IMG/VR virus record: IMGVR_UViG_3300011008_000999
Length of the DNA: 64,000 nucleotides
Strand: one strand, 5' to 3'
DNA from: a virus
Taxonomy: Duplodnaviria > Caudoviricetes
Shown here: in pieces, positions 225-41,117 of the stretch
How the letters are laid out: each line of letters begins with the position of its first letter
Position numbering within the stretch: position 1 is the first letter of the stretch
Notes under the pieces: model-generated
The model's database searches: none
The model's input: only the letters and a program-made list of their open reading frames with translations
What the model was told of the DNA's origin: nothing
Translations under genes and position numbers: made by a program

Positions 225-1418
225 TTAATCTGTACGAACTGCCTTCATTTGTTTCTTATTCTCGTACATTATGGCATCAGCTCTGACAAATACATCATGG
301 AATGAAGTATCTTTATCAGCTGAATATACTGCATGACCTGTAGCAGCTGATATATTTTCCCATTCATTATCTTTGCCAGTTTTAATTATAGAAGATCCTA
401 TATCATTTAGTAAGAAACTTAAAGTATCTACATTCTTGCCTGAAATAATTACAGCAAATTCGTCTCCACCTATTCTAAAACACTTACAACTAGTAAACAT
501 TGCTCTTATGTCATCTGCCAAGATTTTAAGCGCAATATCGCCTTTATCATGACCGTAAGTGTCATTCATCTTCTTAAGAAAGTTAAGATCAATTATAATA
601 AGTGAAAATTTAGCTATTCCATCTTTAATATCTCGATCTAATTGTTCTTCATACTTTTCAAATGCTGTTCTATTAGCTAATCCAGTCAAACCATCTATAT
701 ACATAATTTGTTCAGCACTTAAAGCCTTAGATGTCCAATATACAGATGATGATAGCATCATATATTCAGAAATATAAATAAAGCATATTATACCAAATAA
801 TGGAATAAATAACTTATTTGTTGGTAATACACCTAATGAATTTGCTATATAAGTTAGGACTGAAAAACTAATTAAAGACGAAATAGGTATAAGTAAATAG
901 TTCTTAATCTGTCCGTTAGCTGTTTCAAGCATTTTTGAAAAAGGTGTCTTTATAAATATAATATAGCATATAGTAAGTATACTTAATATTACTACTTTAA
1001 TTGACATAAAGAAAGTAATATTTTCATTTGTATATGGTCCATTAACAGCATCAAAATATTCTAATCGTCCACCAATTAGCTGATCTATAGTTCCGCAAAA
1101 TAAAAACGTAGCTACTACTATAATAAGAAGTGATGTAAAACAAATAAATATTGAATGTGATCTAGATTCTTTATATAACCAATGACTCACTACACATAAT
1201 CCTATACCATATATTATTATTGGAATTGCGTCATTCATTATAAAGAAACTATACCATAACATTGTTAGTGCTGCTACTATAAAACTAGAAGCGGCCCATA
1301 AAAGTACCGTAGACGATTTCTTATACTTAGGTGTCAGAGTAACTGCAGCTAATACTGACGCAAATATGAAATTTAGAGTACCACTAAGAGACCATAGTAC
1401 TATAATTGAAGTTTCCAT
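225..1418 (-). CDS. Membrane-anchored diguanylate cyclase (GGDEF)
   Basis: Multiple N-terminal TM helices; DGLTGLANR, DLNFLKKMNDTYGHDKGD, intact RIGGDEF. Confidence 0.93.
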   Translation of the reverse strand: METSIIVLWSLSGTLNFIFASVLAAVTLTPKYKKSSTVLLWAASSFIVAALTMLWYSFFIMNDAIPIIIYGIGLCVVSHWLYKESRSHSIFICFTSLLIIVVATFLFCGTIDQLIGGRLEYFDAVNGPYTNENITFFMSIKVVILSILTICYIIFIKTPFSKMLETANGQIKNYLLIPISSLISFSVLTYIANSLGVLPTNKLFIPLFGIICFIYISEYMMLSSSVYWTSKALSAEQIMYIDGLTGLANRTAFEKYEEQLDRDIKDGIAKFSLIIIDLNFLKKMNDTYGHDKGDIALKILADDIRAMFTSCKCFRIGGDEFAVIISGKNVDTLSFLLNDIGSSIIKTGKDNEWENISAATGHAVYSADKDTSFHDVFVRADAIMYENKKQMKAVRTD

Positions 1419-1433
1419 TTACGTTCCTCCGTG

Positions 1434-3299
1434 TTAAACTGCATTATGAGACGACAAGAACTCTAAGAAATTTTCCTTTGGTAAAGGCTTAGAGAAATAG
1501 AATCCTTGAATATACTCAATATCAAGTTCTGACATGGCATCTAACTGTTCTTTTGTTTCAATACCTTCAGATACAATATGAAGATTCATATTATGCATGA
1601 TTTGAGTCATTCCTTCTAATACATGCTTAACTTTCTTGTTGTTAAAATAACCTTGAGTAAAGGTATAATCAAACTTAATATTCTGTACAGGAAAATCTAC
1701 TAGATAATCTAAGTTAGATCGTCCGGTTCCAAAATCATCAAGTGAAAATGTTATACCTCTTTTAAGTAGTGCATTTATGTTACTAATAAGGTTATTTCTA
1801 TTACGATTTTGTACTGTTTCAGTAATCTCTAAATTTATCATTGATGGATCAATTTGGTACCTTTCAATAGTATCAATAATAAACTTAGCTGGATTCTCAA
1901 AATCAAACTGTGCAGCAGATAAATTAACTTCAATGCTATCAAGACCTAATTCTTTAGGATTATATTCAGCAATAAACTGACATACTTTTTCAAATATTTT
2001 CATACCTAAAGGAATAATCTGACCAGTTTCTTCTGAAATAGGAATAAATACTCCAGGTGAGATTATACTACCATCAGTATGTCTAATTCTAACTAGTGCT
2101 TCTGCTGCAGAGAACTTTCCAGTTTTTACATTATAAAAAGGCTGATAGAATACTTCTACTCTATCCTCATTAAGTGCGTCCTCAATAAGATCATGAATCT
2201 TATCATATTTACGCATCTTATTTATAAGTTCATCATTAACTTCTATAATTTCTTTAGAAGCATTTTCATAAGAATGAATAAAGTTAAAGAACTCTTCAGG
2301 ATTTAAGAAATCACTACTATTAGGAATAACTAAATATGAGCCTAATGCAGGAACATCTTTAACTGTAGCTGCCATTTCTCGAATCTTATCTAATTGAGAT
2401 CGCATTTTATTAGCATCTTCATAGATAATACAAAACATATCATCGTCTAATTTGAAGACTGGTTCAGATCCAAATGTGAGTAGTGCTTTTGCTGTTCTAA
2501 ATCTAACATTAGTCTTAAGGTCTATATCAACCATCTGTGAAATATAGTTAATTTTAATTGTAAATGCTGAGAACGACTTTTTGAATTTATATCGATCTTT
2601 TACAAAATTAACTAAACCAATATAGTTAAATACGTTAGTATCACTATCAAGATATACATTAGGATTTTCAAGTTGTGTATAAAGAATAATTACACTAAAT
2701 GCTGAAGCAAATCCTATTAATAAAAGTTCAGGAACTATAAACTGAATTATACCACAGATAAGCCAAATACTCTGCCACGTCATAATAATTCTATACTTCT
2801 TCTGCGTCATTTCTTTCTTTTTAAGAAGTCCTAAAAAAATGACAGTCAAAATAAAAATGACAGCCAATACATAAGCGACCAAAGTAGACGGTCCATACGA
2901 GTATGCTTGTCTGCCATCCATGGCAAATGATATTGGAAGTATTAATATCATCAGTTCTCCGAACGTAAAAATAAAATGCAATATACCTTTTATTGGTTTA
3001 TATCTTTTATCTACAAGTAATTCAGTCATTACATACACATATCCGAGATAACCTTGTAGTACAAGTGAAAAGATATACAGTTTACATATAATCTTTGTTA
3101 CAATTGGACTTAATCCACTATATGTTGAATGATATATACACGCAATAGATAATATATCAAGTACTAGCATTATCATACAACTATATAATGATCGCATGAA
3201 CAATATTCTATTTGTTAGATTCAGTTTCTTTTCTCTCATGAATAGCATATATATAATTAACACTACAAATAGAGAACCGCACTGTAATTCAATATTCAT
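1434..3299 (-). CDS. Membrane c-di-GMP phosphodiesterase (degenerate GGDEF + EAL)
   Basis: TM region; FYQP..AEALVR, EITE, DDFGTG, EGIET, QGFYFSKP; GGDEF motif degenerate (KLDDDMF). Confidence 0.93.
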   Translation of the reverse strand: MNIELQCGSLFVVLIIYMLFMREKKLNLTNRILFMRSLYSCMIMLVLDILSIACIYHSTYSGLSPIVTKIICKLYIFSLVLQGYLGYVYVMTELLVDKRYKPIKGILHFIFTFGELMILILPISFAMDGRQAYSYGPSTLVAYVLAVIFILTVIFLGLLKKKEMTQKKYRIIMTWQSIWLICGIIQFIVPELLLIGFASAFSVIILYTQLENPNVYLDSDTNVFNYIGLVNFVKDRYKFKKSFSAFTIKINYISQMVDIDLKTNVRFRTAKALLTFGSEPVFKLDDDMFCIIYEDANKMRSQLDKIREMAATVKDVPALGSYLVIPNSSDFLNPEEFFNFIHSYENASKEIIEVNDELINKMRKYDKIHDLIEDALNEDRVEVFYQPFYNVKTGKFSAAEALVRIRHTDGSIISPGVFIPISEETGQIIPLGMKIFEKVCQFIAEYNPKELGLDSIEVNLSAAQFDFENPAKFIIDTIERYQIDPSMINLEITETVQNRNRNNLISNINALLKRGITFSLDDFGTGRSNLDYLVDFPVQNIKFDYTFTQGYFNNKKVKHVLEGMTQIMHNMNLHIVSEGIETKEQLDAMSELDIEYIQGFYFSKPLPKENFLEFLSSHNAV

Positions 3300-3333
3300 A
3301 ATTATTTCTCCTACTGAGAATCCTCATCCATTT

Positions 3334-3366
3334 AAAAAAATGCGGTAGAATTAGGCTGCTACCGCT
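3334..3366 (-). terminator. Intrinsic terminator GCGGTAG-loop-CTACCGC + U-tract
   Basis: 7-bp GC-rich stem followed by A and a T-run on the minus strand; overlaps an alternative GGCTG/CAGCC hairpin. Confidence 0.75.
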
Positions 3367-3506
3367 CAGCCAGGGGGAGGATTACCAGATGACAAATTAT
3401 ACCTGATGGGTCTTGAACCCACACCTCTACGAATAGTGTACTACTTTATACGACAAGTATAACGACTTTCGTCGATTTGGAGGTATTTGTCGATGACATT
3501 CATCTT
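3334..3506 (-). ncRNA. Putative structured ncRNA/leader containing a tRNA-like domain with no anticodon loop (core 3397-3462)
   Basis: Bounded by conserved promoter (3513-3545) and terminator; acceptor ATACTTG/CAGGTAT, D arm GTAT-AAAGTA-GTAC, mini arm CTA-TTCG-TAG, variable AGGT, T arm GTGGG-TTCAAGA-CCCAT; adjacent CGAC-GAAA-GTCG hairpin. Confidence 0.7.
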
Positions 3507-3512
3507 ATTATC

Positions 3513-3545
3513 ATAATATCAAATAAGTTTGACCTTGTAAATAGT
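3513..3545 (-). promoter_or_regulatory. Conserved element promoter ACTATTTACA-N17-TATTAT
   Basis: Exact motif shared with 12 other intergenic sites. Confidence 0.8.
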
Positions 3546-3547
3546 TT

Positions 3548-4306
3548 TTAACGATATTTCTCTCTAACTTTTTCAAGATCTGATTTTACATAATATCTAT
3601 AAAACATTTCTGTTGAATAGTATTTATAAATATCATCTGTATAATTCTCGTCCTGATGAATACAATCTGGACAATCTATCCAGTGGTACTCAATAATATA
3701 TGTGCCTTCACCAAATATTTCATTTACAGGCGCACGTTCACCTTTAAGATTAGTAATCTCAAAGTCAGGTAAATCCATATATGGTGTATCTAGTGATAAT
3801 GTAGTTCCTAAAATCATATCGAAATAAGACTTTTCTATATCTCCGTTAAATGCACCAATAACTGTACCATCTTTAACTACAATATAAGAAGGAACCCAAT
3901 CAACTCCCAAATCATCTTTAATCCAATTTTCGAAATCTGATCGATGTTCAGGATTATCACACACATATACATGATCTTTTGGCATTATAGTTCTTGCATG
4001 CATATATATCATAAGACCAAAATATGCTACTACAAAAACCATAAAGAATGCAATAATTGGACCAAGTATTTTTAATACTTTATTCTTTTTCTTTGGCGGT
4101 TTTGTAGGTTCATCTACAACTTCTACTTCTGCGTCTAATAGTTCTGATTCTTCTTCAATTGAATTATTATCATCAATTGGTTCACTTGTAATTTCAGCAA
4201 CAGCTTCTTCTCTTGCTCTAGCTAGCATAGCATCAAGTTCATCTTTTGTAAGAGTAACTGTTTCATCATCAGTAGTAGAAGTAGCTAACTTTTCTTCATC
4301 AACCAT
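3548..4306 (-). CDS. Membrane-anchored thioredoxin-fold protein
   Basis: Acidic N-terminus, one TM helix, GVDWVPSYIVVKDG (cis-Pro loop) and CPDC motif. Confidence 0.55.
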   Translation of the reverse strand: MVDEEKLATSTTDDETVTLTKDELDAMLARAREEAVAEITSEPIDDNNSIEEESELLDAEVEVVDEPTKPPKKKNKVLKILGPIIAFFMVFVVAYFGLMIYMHARTIMPKDHVYVCDNPEHRSDFENWIKDDLGVDWVPSYIVVKDGTVIGAFNGDIEKSYFDMILGTTLSLDTPYMDLPDFEITNLKGERAPVNEIFGEGTYIIEYHWIDCPDCIHQDENYTDDIYKYYSTEMFYRYYVKSDLEKVREKYR

Positions 4307-5345
4307 TAGCTACGACCTCCTTTATACTAATTATTTCTTTCTTACCATCAGTCTCACATTTCATAAGATCCTGATTTGTATAGTAGATAGTAAGTTCTTT
4401 ACCTAACGCTGTAAGTTTCTTAACTGCATCATTAGTAAGTTCAAATGTATGATCTTCGCAAGTGTCATCACTAATCTTATATATAAACTCTACACTGTCA
4501 ATTCTTAAGAAAATACCTTTAGGATTAAATACAAGATTAGGCACAGTCTTAAACATTGCTGCTGCGCTCATAGCTTTAGATAGAATAGTAGTATCTAATT
4601 TAACACTACCACCATCGATATCTGTAAATAATTCCATAAAATCGTTATATTGGAAATCATCATTTGAATTTTCAGTGATAACCATAGTAGCATAAAGCTC
4701 ATCAGATTTAACAGCTAATTTGTTAAGTTTGCCTTCTTTAATAATATCATATTCTACATTTGAGATACTATTAAGAATTTCTACACTACTAAGATCAAGA
4801 AGAATATCTTCATCAAAAATTCGTTTTTCTATAATAAGAACATTATCTGTATCTGAAACCATGATATTATCTCCAAAATAGATCTTCTCATAAGTCTCAA
4901 CTACATGTGTAGGATCAAGTACTGATTTTAATGTTCCTAGTTCAATAGTATCATTAATCTTTCTGGAATATTTATAATCACCAGTAGGATCGTTGATACC
5001 AGTTTTTCCTCGCTCTGCTTCATGATTATATGTAGGCAGTTTACACTTTACATTACTTGACTTAATCTGAATAAACTTACCCTTTGTTTCCAAAGTAATA
5101 TCACCATCACAAGACTTAATAAAGTTTGAGAAAGTGTTATAGTCTACAATAGCGTAGAAATCATCAGTTGACTTACCGATTTCTACTCTAATATTATTTA
5201 CTCCGTCTATAGAATATCCATAAACTGTATCACCATCAGTTTCAAAACGAAGCATTCTTTCATACTGTTTACTTGCTACGTTTTTAGATACTGCCATGCC
5301 GAGTAAATTAACTTTCTTTCTTAATTCATCACCATTGACAATCAT
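4299..5345 (-). CDS. Divergent DNA polymerase III beta sliding clamp-like protein
   Basis: 348 aa, DnaN-like N-terminal pattern (ELRKKVNLLGMAV...FSNFIKSCDGDITLE...IQIKS), located in the replication cluster with clamp-loader subunits. Confidence 0.6.
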   Translation of the reverse strand: MIVNGDELRKKVNLLGMAVSKNVASKQYERMLRFETDGDTVYGYSIDGVNNIRVEIGKSTDDFYAIVDYNTFSNFIKSCDGDITLETKGKFIQIKSSNVKCKLPTYNHEAERGKTGINDPTGDYKYSRKINDTIELGTLKSVLDPTHVVETYEKIYFGDNIMVSDTDNVLIIEKRIFDEDILLDLSSVEILNSISNVEYDIIKEGKLNKLAVKSDELYATMVITENSNDDFQYNDFMELFTDIDGGSVKLDTTILSKAMSAAAMFKTVPNLVFNPKGIFLRIDSVEFIYKISDDTCEDHTFELTNDAVKKLTALGKELTIYYTNQDLMKCETDGKKEIISIKEVVANG

Positions 5346-33399: not shown

Positions 33400-34512
33400 C
33401 TATAAATCTCTTTTTCGTTCTTGAAAATCAGTCTCGTTATAAGAATAATAATCTGCAAATGTTAAATATTCACTCTGATATTCATTTTGATGTGTAACTA
33501 CTATCTTATAATCATAACCTTCAGCATCTACTTTAATTCTATTAAGAAGCTGATCAGCTAGATTCTTATCAAATAGACCATATCTGAGGGTTCCCTGATA
33601 ATCATTAGGATGATTCGTTTTATCAACCATAGAACTATTTATATTATCTATAGAAGTTTCACCAGGAAACACACCATTACCATGTTTAGTGAGATATGAT
33701 CGTGTTACATAATATGGAATAACTTCTTCAGATGTAAGTTCTTTAATATAAGTCATTCCAGTTCTTGTAGGTGTTCCCCATGTATCAGTATATCTATCTA
33801 ACAGTAATCCTTGAGCATTTTCAAAAACTACTACATCATATTCTTTTTCAATTGACTTATAACTGCGTACATTTACAATCATTGTCATATTAACTGTATC
33901 TGCAGCATAATTTTCAAGAAGATTATCTGAATAGAATATGTCATACTCATCCGCGGTAAGTATGATTCCATATTCTATAAGAACATTCTTAAAATAAGTA
34001 TCTCTAAGTGTTTTAAACTTTTCTACAACTTCTGCAGTACTAATACCAAGTATATCTTTCCAATATATAGGTTGTCCAGCTTCATTTCTACGAACTGTTT
34101 CCCATATACCATAACCACAACTACCATGACGCTTATCGCGTCGCTGCTCAACCATACGATTGATTAACATATCAAATGGAGTTGTTATTGTGCAATCTTC
34201 ATCAATATAGATTCTGTTCATTGGCTCCATGGTTTTCTTAAGTTCATAATACTCATCCATAAAGAGCATTGGATTAACCATATAGAACTTAGAAAAATAG
34301 ATGTCTGCGTATGAAAATCCTGCACCAAAATGTGAATATACATGACGATTTCCATCTTTGTCATAAGCAGTATGACCACGCTGACATCCACCATTTGTAA
34401 GAACATTTATAACTGACTTATTATGAAGTTTAGCCTCGCGGCAAAGTTTATTTGCCACGAGACCTTTACCTTCATCGCCGTAATTTGCACCGATTACCGC
34501 GTATCTTACCAT
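33400..34512 (-). CDS. Adenylosuccinate synthetase-like protein (short, divergent PurA family)
   Basis: GANYGDEGKG, NGGCQRGHT, HGSCGYG, VFENAQGLLLD, TRSYLTKHGNG. Confidence 0.85.
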   Translation of the reverse strand: MVRYAVIGANYGDEGKGLVANKLCREAKLHNKSVINVLTNGGCQRGHTAYDKDGNRHVYSHFGAGFSYADIYFSKFYMVNPMLFMDEYYELKKTMEPMNRIYIDEDCTITTPFDMLINRMVEQRRDKRHGSCGYGIWETVRRNEAGQPIYWKDILGISTAEVVEKFKTLRDTYFKNVLIEYGIILTADEYDIFYSDNLLENYAADTVNMTMIVNVRSYKSIEKEYDVVVFENAQGLLLDRYTDTWGTPTRTGMTYIKELTSEEVIPYYVTRSYLTKHGNGVFPGETSIDNINSSMVDKTNHPNDYQGTLRYGLFDKNLADQLLNRIKVDAEGYDYKIVVTHQNEYQSEYLTFADYYSYNETDFQERKRDL

Positions 34513-36119: not shown

Positions 36120-37929
36120 TTATGAACCAAATGTAGAATCTTCATCATCGTCTTCCATGTCTTCTTCACGCTTCTTAGCAAATGGGTTAGAAGTAAGAAG
36201 GTTTACATCATAAATAGACTTGATACGAATAATACCATTACGATTCAATCTATCAATCATGAAGCAAGTACCTGTAGGAAAGTTAGTTGCTGATGATACA
36301 ATTGAATCTACATCAATAGCTGAAGATGGATTGATCTTAGACGTATCAAATGCATCTAAGAACAGCTGTGCTTCTTCCATAGATGACTTGAACATAAACT
36401 TAGTTGTAATGTAGTTTGCAATACCCTTAGGGAAGTGAGAAATACCCTGAGACGCAAGTACAGTAGCAACATTAAGTGAACGACCAAGAACAAGGAATCT
36501 ATCTATAATAGCACCCATCTCCTTGTTACCAAATAATAAGTGCGCCTCATCACAAATAAGTGTTGTAGGAATCTTATTATCACCAGAAAGAATATCAAGT
36601 AACTTTGTAGTTATAATATAAAGAATAGCTGATGTAAATCTTTCATTTGCATCATAGTCTTCAGGTTTCTTAGAATAATCAGGAAGACTAAGACCATGTA
36701 ATGAAATAACCATAGAATCTGTAGATGAAAGTACAAGTGGCTTTACATTTGTTTCACGAGTAAAGAGTAACTTACCATACTTGTTATCTTCAAACATCTT
36801 AAGCAATGTACCAACAGTCTGAGCATATTCATTCTGGTTAGCATAAAGATAGTCTGCAACATCCTGCATATCATAATAATCGCCAGTAGTTTTAGCTCTA
36901 GTAACAAAGTCTGTTACAATAGGTGTAATACCAATAATAGTATTTCTTTCAAGCTTACCACACATGATTTCAATAACAGTCATAAGTGTAGCAGTATCAA
37001 TATACTTAATATTACCTTTCTCGTCGATTTTCTTTAAGAATTCGAACGGATTTAAAGCACCTGGACGAATCTTATTGATGTCAATAATACTGATGTTAGG
37101 ATTTACATTATACAACTTATCAAAGTCGTTTTTAGGGTCAATAGCAATAACTCTTTGACCCATACCTAAACAATTTGCTGCAATATTTAATAGTGCAAAT
37201 GTCTTACCTGAACCAGGAGAACCTACTACAATAGTAATATCGATAGGTAAGCCTTTGAAGTTATCTCCAGCTTTTCCCCCGATCCACACCGTGCATGCGA
37301 TTTTCATCGCACACGGCGTTCCATCAAGATTTAATTATTCTCGAGTTACAATTAAACCATTGACTTGTGGCCATTACTACTATTCTCATTACAAGAATTA
37401 TCGACGCTTCGACCACTACTTTTCAGCATTAGTTAAGTAGCTTATTATTCTTCGTCTACAATCTAAATCGACTAATACCTTTCCTCGTTCCAATATATTC
37501 TATCTGTACATATACTTTTAGGTGCCTACTTTAGACTAATTTAGCTTGGATGTACCCGCCTGATAAATCATTCGTACAACATAGTATTTCATAGCCAAGC
37601 ATTTTACTTTACTACACTAAATTATCTGTATACTTCGTAGGTTCGTCAGATTTCGTTATCATTCTCACCATGAGTATTTTATAGACTTCCGGCATATTCT
37701 GCCGACTTTACCGAGCTTCTAACAATTAAAGTTTCCTTATATATTGCTAGTCGAAGATTAAAGAATGTGTTTCAAGTCGTTACTCTATCATTCCACATTT
37801 CGAATATATTAGTTCTCCATACATAACTGTATGTGTTTAGCCTTTGTGTATTTAAGCTAAAAACGAGTCGCACCCTGGCGCATTATTTACCATCTGAGCA
37901 GTTGTAGGACTCCATTTGATAGTACTCAT
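36120..37929 (-). CDS. VirB4/ConE-like conjugation ATPase, two exons (37874-37929 + 36120-37236), 390 aa spliced
   Basis: Spliced start MSTIKWSPTTAQMVNNAPG|TIVVGSPGSGKT; IDPKND, LNPF, ICDEAH, GRSLN...ASQ. Confidence 0.82.
37237..37873 (-). mobile_element. ORF-less group II intron (637 nt, class B-like)
   Basis: 5' GTGCGACTCG; domain V GAACGCCGTGTGCGATGAAAATCGCATGCACGGTGTG; domain VI ending CCTATCGATAT; EBS1 CTTGGC (37594-37599) complements IBS1 GCCAGG; excision restores the frame. Confidence 0.92.
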
Positions 37930-37932
37930 TTT

Positions 37933-38967
37933 CTAATTTTCCTCCTTTACTATAGGTCCAACTGAATAAACAGTTCCTTTATTAGTTTTGTTTCTATATA
38001 ATTTTGGAATAGGCATAATAAAATTATTCTTATTAAAGTCTAATTTAGAATATATGTCTTTTCCTAAAATTAACGATTTTAATAATAGCTTTTGTTGTTC
38101 AAAATCTTCAAATTCATATATATGTATTAGACGTATTCCTTTATCTTTGCATAATAATGATTTTTTGAGATGATAATCTTTACTACATCCATTTTCTGTA
38201 GAATGCCAATAGTTTCCATTAAATTCTATAGCTAGCTTTAAATCTGGTAAAAATATATCTAATTCATTTGGATATATAATCTTACGTCTATTTTCTAATA
38301 CTGGTCCAGTATAAAATGACTTAATATAATTTACTAAATCTTTTTCTTTATACGACATTCCAGCATTAGGTGTTATAGAACTTTTGTATTTTACTATTTT
38401 ATCTATATCTGAGTTTTTAACAAATGCATGTGCTTTATATATAGTAATATCCACAATATGTCTCCAACTATCACCATATTCTGGTATTAAATCTGTAACT
38501 AATGTACAATCATTTTCTTTTGCATACTGATCTAATAATTGTTGTTTAGTTAACTTCATTTTAGCCGAATTTACATATATCTCTGAACCATAACGTTCTT
38601 TACAAGTTTGTCTAGTTCTTTGCTGACATTCTTGAGATTTAACTGTATTAGATATTTTTCTTTTTCTTTCAGTAGTATCACCATTCCAAACATTACTTAA
38701 TTTTTGTCTAGTTTCTTTAGAAAATGTATGACCGTAAAAACTATTTAACTTACCTACTTTAGTTTTTCCTATTTCACTGAGTTTTTTATTTCTATTAAGT
38801 CTAACACATTCTGGACATTTACTACTTTTATAAAGAATTTGATGTACAGTTTTAACATAACTGCCATGTGTATCACATACTAACGTTATTGGTGTATCAT
38901 ATGTTACATCATTATATGTAAGATTTGGAAATACTGAATTGAGTCTATTTGCTAAATATGTACTCAT
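37933..38967 (-). CDS. Free-standing Vsr-like (PD-(D/E)xK) homing endonuclease
   Basis: C..HG and CPEC zinc motifs, NUMOD3-like NSFYGHTFSKETRQKLS, ELDIFLPDLKLAIEFNGNYWHS, IRLIHIYE. Confidence 0.82.
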   Translation of the reverse strand: MSTYLANRLNSVFPNLTYNDVTYDTPITLVCDTHGSYVKTVHQILYKSSKCPECVRLNRNKKLSEIGKTKVGKLNSFYGHTFSKETRQKLSNVWNGDTTERKRKISNTVKSQECQQRTRQTCKERYGSEIYVNSAKMKLTKQQLLDQYAKENDCTLVTDLIPEYGDSWRHIVDITIYKAHAFVKNSDIDKIVKYKSSITPNAGMSYKEKDLVNYIKSFYTGPVLENRRKIIYPNELDIFLPDLKLAIEFNGNYWHSTENGCSKDYHLKKSLLCKDKGIRLIHIYEFEDFEQQKLLLKSLILGKDIYSKLDFNKNNFIMPIPKLYRNKTNKGTVYSVGPIVKEEN

Positions 38968-39125
38968 TCATCTTCCTCCACCTTATCTTCTACTTTATTT
39001 TCTACTGTATTACTATTTTCATCTAAATATAATTTCTGTCCTTTTCCAGGACGTCCTACTATAAAAGTATTTTGTGAATTATTTTCTATTTTAGCTGTTG
39101 CTGGATTCCATGTAATTGATGACAT
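38964..39125 (-). pseudogene. Orphan duplicate of the ATPase N-terminus (53 aa)
   Basis: MSSITWNPATAKIENNSQNTFIVGRPGKGQ aligns with MSTIKWSPTTAQMVNNAPGTIVVGSPGSGK; RBS GGAGG; stop overlaps the endonuclease ATG. Confidence 0.8.
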
Positions 39126-39977: not shown

Positions 39978-41117
39978 TTATTCTCCTCCATTATCAAATG
40001 AAATGTATTTACTAAGTTTAGATTCCTTAATGGCTTTTACTGATAGTATACTGTTAATCATCCAACTAACAGATTCACGATCTTCATACTTTTCAAAATA
40101 TCTTAACATTTTATCAGTAACGTCATTAAATTTGTTGAAGAAGTCATGTGTTTTCTTTTCTGATTCATTCATATCTTCATATTCTATATGTACATTATCA
40201 TAAGATTCATTTTCACCTACTAGTACATGAAAAACTATGAAACCTTCAACGTTATCTTCTTTTGGACTAGTCTTATACATATATGAAAGTACATTTTTCA
40301 TTTTTTCATCTTCAAGCATAACAATGTTCAATGGCATGAAGCTTAAATTATTTTCATCACATATAAGCTTAGGTATATCATAAATCAAATCAAGAACAAT
40401 TTGCTCAGATATTTCTGTCTGATAATAAGGAAACAGATACATCATAGGCTGATTATAAATACCTCTATAATCTTGATTCTCACCAAGTTGTTTAATAGTC
40501 ATAGCGATCATAGTAGTTACTTCACCATTACGCTCCACATAATAGATACAACCAAATTGCATCCAAAATATGATATTCTCTCGAGCAGCTTCTTCAGAAT
40601 CAAGCACGTCATTCTTTTTGAGATATCTAATTAAGTAATCAGTAATTTTATCTAAATCATCCCAAGTGGCATATTTCAAAACATACTTACTTTTAACTCC
40701 AACTGATTTATTTTTACGTCTAACATTTCTAGGAGTTATGAGAATTGATCTGTTGTATTCATCATACGCAAGAAGTCTATGTCGCTGACAATAGTCTATA
40801 ACTTGCACATATGAATCCAAATAGTCTTTAATCTGTTGCTTATACTTAGGTTTAAGATATTTGATATATTCCATGCTATATAGTTTGTTGTCCTTAGATT
40901 CATTACAATCTTTACATAATGGAATTAAGTTAATCATTTGATTAGATCCACCTTTATCAAGTGGAATAAAATGATCCACTGTCATCTGATAACCTGCAAA
41001 AATAGGTGTTCCACAATGTGCACACTTATTACCTGATTTTGCACAAATATCTTCTTTTTCATCAAGAGTAAAATGTTCTCTATCGTAATATTTCTTTTGT
41101 ATTAAATTCCCTTCCAA
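39978..41117 (-). CDS. HNH endonuclease domain protein with C-terminal extension
   Basis: CAHCG...TVDHFIPLDKGGSN...NL.PLCKDCN..K. Confidence 0.85.
   Translation of the reverse strand: MEGNLIQKKYYDREHFTLDEKEDICAKSGNKCAHCGTPIFAGYQMTVDHFIPLDKGGSNQMINLIPLCKDCNESKDNKLYSMEYIKYLKPKYKQQIKDYLDSYVQVIDYCQRHRLLAYDEYNRSILITPRNVRRKNKSVGVKSKYVLKYATWDDLDKITDYLIRYLKKNDVLDSEEAARENIIFWMQFGCIYYVERNGEVTTMIAMTIKQLGENQDYRGIYNQPMMYLFPYYQTEISEQIVLDLIYDIPKLICDENNLSFMPLNIVMLEDEKMKNVLSYMYKTSPKEDNVEGFIVFHVLVGENESYDNVHIEYEDMNESEKKTHDFFNKFNDVTDKMLRYFEKYEDRESVSWMINSILSVKAIKESKLSKYISFDNGGE

Follow-up and report, generated by a model that had tools for sequence, protein, structure and literature searches.

A group II intron without an open reading frame interrupts a VirB4-like ATPase gene of a giant phage-like gut element and seems to spread with a neighbouring endonuclease gene

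Group II introns count as retroelements that rely on a reverse transcriptase (RT) of their own, and it was only in 2025 that their presence in phages was documented. Merk, Jones and Eddy (NAR 2025, PMC12350094), who scanned IMG/VR in bulk for group II introns, list in their Table S1 class IIB introns devoid of an open reading frame (ORF) in jumbo phages of Firmicutes, namely in the RNA polymerase beta' gene of Bacillus phage vB_BspM_Internexus (594 nt), in the terminase gene of Listeria phage LPJP1 (671 nt) and in Staphylococcus phage PALS_2; in the same table, phage introns that match the D1D4-5 model, carry a CGC or AGC triad and end in AT are assigned to class IIB. In the phages AR9, PBS1, MarsHill and S6, an endonuclease of the CapR/DUF723 plus EDxHD/Vsr type is encoded inside domain IV of the group II intron (PMC12350094). 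A related phenomenon, collaborative homing, is described for cyanophage S-PM2, in which an ORF-less group I intron of psbA lies adjacent to the gene for the free-standing endonuclease F-CphI (PMC6083498, PMC3984707). Here we analyse a stretch of 64,000 nt (hereafter the window) of the IMG/VR virus record IMGVR_UViG_3300011008_000999 (Duplodnaviria; Caudoviricetes), in which an ORF-less group II intron interrupts the gene for a VirB4-like ATPase next to a free-standing endonuclease gene. The intron seems to have spread between relatives together with this neighbouring DNA-cutting gene, not via the usual route of reverse transcription.

The intron as such is of a known sort, as group II introns of phages, including the ORF-less IIB introns of jumbo phages, were published in 2025 (PMC12350094). 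It resembles the latter in its match to the D1D4-5 model, the CGC triad, the AT 3' end, the length of about 600 nt and the absence of an ORF, as well as in interrupting a conserved gene of a very large phage at a junction set by intronless homologues, and its domains V and VI match those of LPJP1, AR9, PBS1 and Internexus at 78-83% identity. It differs from them in its host gene, which encodes a VirB4-C-like ATPase, in residing in an uncultured gut element, and in being tied to, and apparently moving with, an adjacent free-standing endonuclease gene. LPJP1 furthermore has one RT-bearing intron, whereas the genome containing the window has no RT at all. The RT/maturase-bearing D1D4-5 introns, represented by IMG/VR locus L150 and the DNA polymerase intron of LPJP1, belong to the same structural family and possess an identical 32-nt core of domain V, but introns of the L150 type carry a 600-aa RT/maturase (TIGR04416) in their domain IV, where the window intron has a hairpin of roughly 40 nt. 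AR9, PBS1, MarsHill and S6 share with the present locus a D1D4-5 ribozyme accompanied by a DUF723/Vsr-type endonuclease, and homing would proceed at the DNA level in both cases; their endonuclease lies within the intron, whereas that of the window lies outside it, upstream of the host gene. As in the psbA/F-CphI pair of S-PM2, an ORF-less intron, predicted here to be self-splicing, sits at a conserved site beside the gene for a free-standing endonuclease, both elements are acquired and lost jointly, and flanking DNA is co-converted. The S-PM2 intron is, however, a group I intron, and cleavage of the intronless site was shown experimentally, whereas the window holds a group II intron and a Vsr/EDxHD-type endonuclease of predicted activity. 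In the literature we found no group II intron that forms such a pair with a free-standing endonuclease in collaborative homing, and this partnership is possibly the new part of the system.

Among the curated models of Rfam, none matched the window apart from those covering the two halves of the intron, RF02004 (105 bits against a gathering score of 34.5) and RF00029 (59.8 bits against 40). The intron begins with GTGCG (37873..37869) and ends with AT (37238..37237), boundaries that are kept in 13 intron copies, and an unpaired A at 37244 in domain VI lies 8 nt from the 3' splice site. Six domains were recognized with RNAalifold, domain IV being the short hairpin mentioned above, without any ORF. 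The D1D4-5 match, the CGC triad and the AT end fit the IIB structural class, as in Table S1 of Merk et al. (PMC12350094). A sequence-only reading of this stretch had proposed a 637-nt ORF-less group II intron at 37874/37236 with these ends and triad, had labelled it class B and had suggested group II intron models as a check; the Rfam matches, both above their gathering scores, and the covariation across the 13 copies described below bear this proposal out.

The exact junction can be fixed by comparison with intronless alleles. Joining GG|T at 37874|37236, where ...GCGCCAGG on the upstream side meets TACTATTG on the downstream side, yields ...NNAPGTIVVGSPGSGKT, which matches the N-terminus of the intronless homologues P0004, P0005 and P0007 letter for letter. 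These are uninterrupted proteins that start with MSTIKWSPTTAQMVNNAPGTIVVGSPGSGKT, show 95-97% identity and equal the predicted spliced product. They belong to 288 relatives that we retrieved with exon 2 as the query and sorted by the class of their N-terminus; other classes comprise calls from inside the intron (MKVACTVW...) and calls from an internal Met (MVNNAPG...). Because the intronless alleles L026, L028 and L031 are up to 98% identical to the window allele, the junction is fixed independently of any RNA model, and the restoration of the gene by GG|T, also part of the sequence-only reading, agrees with the same N-terminus in intronless homologues of 95-98% identity. The data thus indicate a complete ORF-less group II intron with its junction exactly at 37874|37236.

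Exon 1 contributes the start codon of the ATPase and its residues 1-18, which are conserved, so that, as far as the sequence can show, a full-length ATPase can come only from RNA spliced at this junction; the dependence of ATPase production on splicing had been anticipated correctly. The ORF called for the gene starts instead with MKIACTVW, as had been pointed out before, and this start is intron sequence because its ATG at 37307 falls in the loop of domain V. Translation of an N-terminally altered ATPase from this in-frame ATG is unlikely, because a stable helix encloses the site and the family shows almost no variation in the exon-1 residues. Annotators should take note that public protein sets list the gene with this false intronic start.

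The 13 copies of the intron at the same site, collected from contigs of ENA, Logan, JGI and IMG/VR, are 621-665 nt in length and 82-99% identical. RNAalifold predicted 182 pairs, 50 of which show compensatory changes. In an alignment with 200 pairs (A3), 98.6% of the pair cells are standard pairs and 57 pairs are changed on both sides, as compared with 21.6 in shuffles, none of 500 shuffles reaching 57; in controls with slid partners, only 3-10 pairs were changed on both sides. The 6-bp helix between exon-binding site 1 (EBS1) and intron-binding site 1 (IBS1), CTTGGC/GCCAGG, had already been noticed in the sequence-only reading. It is 94.9% paired over the 13 copies and includes two compensatory pairs, with ACCAGG in the exon and CCTGGT as EBS1 in L023 and L025, and GCCGGG in the exon and CTCGAC as EBS1 in L018. 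No convincing candidate emerged for EBS2 or EBS3: the pairing GCATTAT/ATAATGC overlaps a conserved hairpin, and three columns covary with the first base of exon 2, but only in two possibly related copies. Overall, these patterns indicate that the ribozyme is structurally conserved and under selection.

Neither an RT nor a maturase is encoded by the genome itself. Profile searches of the entire 331,944 bp with RVT_1 and GIIM gave no match to either, which extends to the whole replicon the earlier remark that the window carries no RT/maturase, and the window intron is the only group II intron of this genome. RVT_1 found no match in four related complete IMG/VR records either, two of which hold 2 and 3 further ORF-less introns. 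A search for copies of the intron in bacteria, made with an invariant 18-mer against 185,579 genomes, gave 14 matches, all of them chance matches with no further similarity. Splicing would be self-catalysed, or may be aided by host factors or by the maturase of an RT-bearing relative of the intron in the host cell.

The history of the intron appears to be separate from that of its host gene. Compared with the window copy, the intron is 99.2% identical in L038, 93% in L039 and L024 and 91% in L020, whereas the ATPases of these four alleles are only 74-78% identical to that of the window (74% in L038). The identity profile against L038 is 98-100% inside a block around the intron and falls to ~70% downstream and <50% upstream, with sharp borders (Table 1). 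Similar breaks were found in L039, L024, L020 and L036, with the same right border and with the left border within or just past the upstream gene. As close relatives differ in whether they carry the intron, while divergent alleles hold nearly identical copies, the intron is evidently mobile. The mosaic shows a horizontal transfer of the intron as a block of DNA, which also takes in exon 1, ~39 nt of exon 2 and, on the upstream side, the 3' part of the endonuclease gene. Retrohoming leaves upstream intergenic or gene DNA behind, while break repair or recombination carries such DNA along. The sharp borders of the block, and the endonuclease-gene DNA that it includes upstream of exon 1, therefore argue for break repair or recombination rather than for retrohoming.

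The endonuclease gene stops 3 nt ahead of the start codon of the ATPase gene. In the model of its product, which has a mean predicted local distance difference test score of only 71, the C-terminal domain resembles the catalytic domain of I-Bth0305I (3r3p), with a template modelling (TM) score of 0.64-0.66 and an E of 3e-3, and gave TM scores of 0.51-0.57 against Vsr (1vsr, 1cw0). E235, D237, E248, H255 and H266 are invariant across nine endonuclease homologues, and the protein is predicted to be a nuclease of the Vsr/EDxHD type. Paralogues occur elsewhere in the same genome. Kinship to the intron-encoded endonuclease of AR9 was considered and rejected, the BLASTP match being not significant (E = 0.27), apart from the nuclease motif.

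The presence of the intron is closely associated with that of the endonuclease gene. We examined 19 non-redundant alleles of the close clade, counting as endonuclease this or a related gene, or a remnant of it, that abuts the ATPase start. All 12 alleles with an abutting gene or remnant carry the window intron (intron B), a second intron at a nearby site (intron A, see below) or both, and five of the seven alleles without one are intronless (Fisher p = 0.0018, in a test that ignores shared ancestry). The sister of the window allele, 98% identical to it, carries neither endonuclease nor intron. The locus thus presents the features by which collaborative homing is recognized, that is, a free-standing endonuclease gene in the adjacent position, and an intron gained and lost together with it under co-conversion of the flanks.

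Intron A is likewise an ORF-less group II intron, 663 nt in length with GTGTG at its 5' end, and lies after codon 7 of the ATPase gene (L002:3301-3963); further copies are found at L018:1736-2399, L021:1745-2405 and L023:1781-2433. In L018, L021 and L023, introns A and B occur together and flank a micro-exon of 36 nt, so that two splicing events are needed for the first 57 nt of the gene. In other relatives, an intein occupies the same Walker A site after GSGK (L006:2337 onwards; P0091, Pfam PF05203). Across lineages, the first 33 codons of the ATPase gene host two introns, one intein and one endonuclease cassette.

A second locus in related genomes carries the same combination. The 3' end of an FtsK-like gene contains one ORF-less intron in G001 and three in tandem in G004, all of the same family and 77% identical to the window intron, and a homologous Vsr-type endonuclease gene directly follows the introns in both genomes. 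The gene end is duplicated in G001, where the last 16 residues of the host gene recur at the end of the endonuclease ORF. EBS1 of the G001 intron, CCGGAC, fits its own exon end, GCCCGG, an IBS1 similar to that of the window, indicating that the pairing was re-adapted at the second site. We regard this locus as an independent replicate of the pairing of intron and endonuclease.

On the other side of the endonuclease gene, the homology of a 53-aa ORF to the spliced 5' end of the ATPase gene ends at about codon 32, which corresponds to the right edge of the transferred block. This ORF is probably the stranded old 5' end of the ATPase gene. The locus is then ordered as stranded gene end (39125..38964), Vsr-like endonuclease gene and replacement gene end carrying the intron. 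ORFs of this kind were also observed upstream of the ATPase in relatives (L026:3333-3497, L028:3362-3547, L031:3365-3547 and L002:2057-2239), with the Walker A motif progressively decayed. L028 and L031 possess the stranded fragment without the endonuclease gene and without the intron, which looks like a secondary loss of the cassette. We rejected the idea that the stranded fragment is a constant part of the cassette: it is absent from the endonuclease-bearing alleles L016, L018 and L020, and represents a lineage-specific scar.

The gene interrupted by the intron had been taken for a VirB4-like transfer ATPase. The product of exon 2 matches Pfam PF12846 (AAA_10; 2.3e-30, 106 bits), and to this extent the assignment holds for the C-terminal domain. 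The full VirB4/TcpF architecture does not: the spliced ATPase is about 390 aa in length, its match to NCBIfam TcpF is limited to model positions 458-797 (77 bits against a cut-off of 1100), its match to VirB4_CagE scores 39 bits against a cut-off of 643, and the VirB4 N-terminal domain found no match anywhere in the genome. A VirB4-like ATPase domain is hence a fair label for this stand-alone P-loop ATPase, which resembles the C-terminal domain of VirB4/TcpF. Around its gene lie further genes for endonucleases, small ORFs, phrog_2971 and a PurZ-like gene, without a type IV secretion cluster, and these neighbours vary among relatives.

The replicon to which the window belongs is an IMG/VR virus record of 331,944 bp from gut samples, with direct terminal repeats and rated complete. 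Its G+C content is 32.7%, and 78 of 79 ORFs of >=330 aa share one strand, while the remaining one overlaps a plus-strand ORF. Its phage-type genes comprise split multisubunit RNA polymerase beta-like genes as in jumbo phages, besides genes for topoisomerase II, helicases, a sigma factor, a UvsX-like recombinase and, in the window, a PurZ-like protein. A scan of 28 large ORFs against PHROGs for phage hallmark genes identified replication and transcription genes, together with only a weak TerL-like match and a weak tape-measure match. We therefore call this 332-kb replicon a phage-like element.

The observations on the intron and on its neighbour are jointly best explained, with a probability of roughly 0.6, by a complete IIB-like ORF-less intron at codon 19 that was moved as a DNA block with the endonuclease, in a manner that we infer to be collaborative homing. 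In this process, the endonuclease would cut naive copies of the ATPase gene within its conserved Walker A region, and repair of the break would then copy in the cassette of endonuclease gene, replacement 5' gene end and intron or introns; as the intron splits the endonuclease target in the replacement copy, the genome carrying the cassette would itself be protected. Several points weigh against this explanation. Both the cleavage target and the immunity conferred by the intron are predictions, and the association test takes no account of common descent. L019 and L024 carry the intron without the endonuclease gene, and L012, L051, L052 and L054, 54-57% identical, have an endonuclease-like gene ~0.5 kb upstream and no intron. 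Searches of the element with Terminase_6N and Phage_sheath_1 found no match. An RT ORF is present in 19 of 32 IMG/VR loci that share this domain V core, one of these RTs being a TIGR04416 RT/maturase (332 bits), and a related intron occupies the FtsK-like gene, where IBS1 is similar (GCCCGG). Because RT-bearing relatives are common and because of this second site, an RT supplied in trans and RNA-based retromobility may have played a part.

If that part were the whole, the intron would spread by classical retrohoming, that is, by reverse splicing into intronless alleles with an RT/maturase provided in trans by an RT-bearing relative that resides in the host cell or a co-infecting element, and the endonuclease would be a coincidental second parasite of this conserved site. 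Trans mobilisation of ORF-less phage introns has indeed been proposed (Merk et al. 2025, PMC12350094), and the EBS1/IBS1 pairing maintained through compensatory changes, the 77%-identical intron in another gene with its EBS1 adapted, and the RT-bearing loci just mentioned all speak for such a spread. We nevertheless consider a spread mainly by retrohoming unlikely: this genome and the four related complete records contain no RT, the block carries endonuclease-gene DNA upstream of exon 1 with sharp flanking borders, and intron and endonuclease co-occur strictly in the 12 alleles of the association count. Alternatively, the intron could be an immobile relic, vertically inherited and merely spliced out, with its patchy distribution resulting from repeated loss. 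Such a relic would be ORF-less in a genome without RT, as is the case here, and precise loss could yield intronless close relatives. Vertical descent, however, does not yield an intron that is 99% or 93% identical in L038, L039 and L024 where the host gene is far less so (74%), nor such sharp mosaic borders, and this incongruence makes the relic very improbable. Most doubtful of all is the suggestion of the sequence-only reading that splicing serves as a control point gating a conjugative transfer ATPase. It could draw on the VirB4/TcpF-like ATPase domain, on the presence in the element of a ParA and of an adhesin-like protein of 4378 aa that bears TQ and SpaA domains, and on the missing terminase and sheath matches. 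The record, however, is a virus record with jumbo-phage-type genes, the ATPase consists of the C-terminal domain only in a genome devoid of the VirB4 N-domain, and type IV secretion neighbours are absent from the locus, so that we no longer speak of a transfer ATPase. A built-in regulator, moreover, should be conserved, whereas near-identical relatives lack the intron; its presence or absence among them is what is expected of a selfish element and gives no sign of a regulatory role.

If collaborative homing is genuinely at work here, it would be without precedent among group II introns, and a retroelement ribozyme would survive without any reverse transcriptase. The dozens of natural intron-plus and intron-minus alleles suggest that ORF-less group II introns can live by endonuclease-driven homing at the DNA level through a neighbouring gene, a life style so far known for group I introns. 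If confirmed, this would account for the persistence of such introns in phage genomes that have no RT. It is attractive to extend the proposal, tentatively and at somewhat short of even odds, to an RT-free clade of giant gut phage-like elements, in which ORF-less group II introns would persist and spread in free-standing Vsr-type cassettes that cut codons of ATPase motifs, with the intron giving immunity. Apart from its mobility, the intron could serve splicing studies as a compact ribozyme, of about 620-665 nt, that naturally has no maturase.

Table 1. Features of the intron-bearing ATPase locus and of the second locus (positions are those of the window unless a locus is named).
Feature	Position	Strand	Evidence and remarks
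Exon 1, ATPase gene	37929..37874	minus	ATG + 18 codons (MSTIKWSPTTAQMVNNAP) + GG, the first two bases of Gly19
ORF-less group II intron B	37873..37237	minus	637 nt; 5' GTGCG, 3' AT
Exon 2, ATPase gene	36120..37236	minus	Third base of Gly19, TIVVGSPGSGKT (Walker A), remaining AAA_10 ATPase, stop codon
Part of domain I matching Rfam group-II-D1D4-5	37678..37817	minus	RF02004, 105 bits, E 8.4e-22
EBS1, CTTGGC, in terminal loop of domain I	37594..37599	minus	Pairing with IBS1 and compensatory changes
IBS1, GCCAGG, last six bases of exon 1	37879..37874	minus	Pairs with EBS1
Domains V and VI	37237..37321	minus	RF00029; CGC catalytic triad; bulged branch-point A at 37244
Recombination block shared with L038 at 98-100%	about 37200..38160	minus	Endonuclease 3' end, exon 1, intron, ~39 nt of exon 2
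Free-standing homing endonuclease gene, 344 aa	37933..38967	minus	phrog_3339 'homing endonuclease' 8.9e-40; Pfam DUF723
53-aa ORF copying the ATPase N-terminus to a decayed Walker A (…FIVGRPGKGQK)	38964..39125	minus	Homology to spliced 5' end
Second locus, L129 (G004:148000-154500)	about 1245-4812		
Second locus, L124 (G001)	364-2468	minus	

Other genes of the element and of its relatives deserve brief mention. A 379-aa protein with an N-terminal HNH domain is encoded at 39978-41117 of the window (minus strand); it is kept upstream of the ATPase region in L002, L003, L026, L028 and L031, and looks like a resident gene rather than a sporadic homing endonuclease. The adenylosuccinate synthetase homologue at 33400-34512 of the window (minus strand) matches phrog_1211 (PurZ-type, 5.9e-50), which hints that the DNA of the element may contain 2-aminoadenine in place of adenine. 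The adhesin-like protein of 4378 aa (G000:C1:289495-302628; L132:495-13628) comprises six T-Q ester domains, a SpaA-like domain and a subtilase domain, and the ParA-like ATPase is encoded at G000:C1:282759-284189. Downstream of the ATPase locus in one relative (L021:5792-6001), we detected a HEARO RNA (RF02033, 130 bits), a kind of RNA associated with IscB/OMEGA nucleases.

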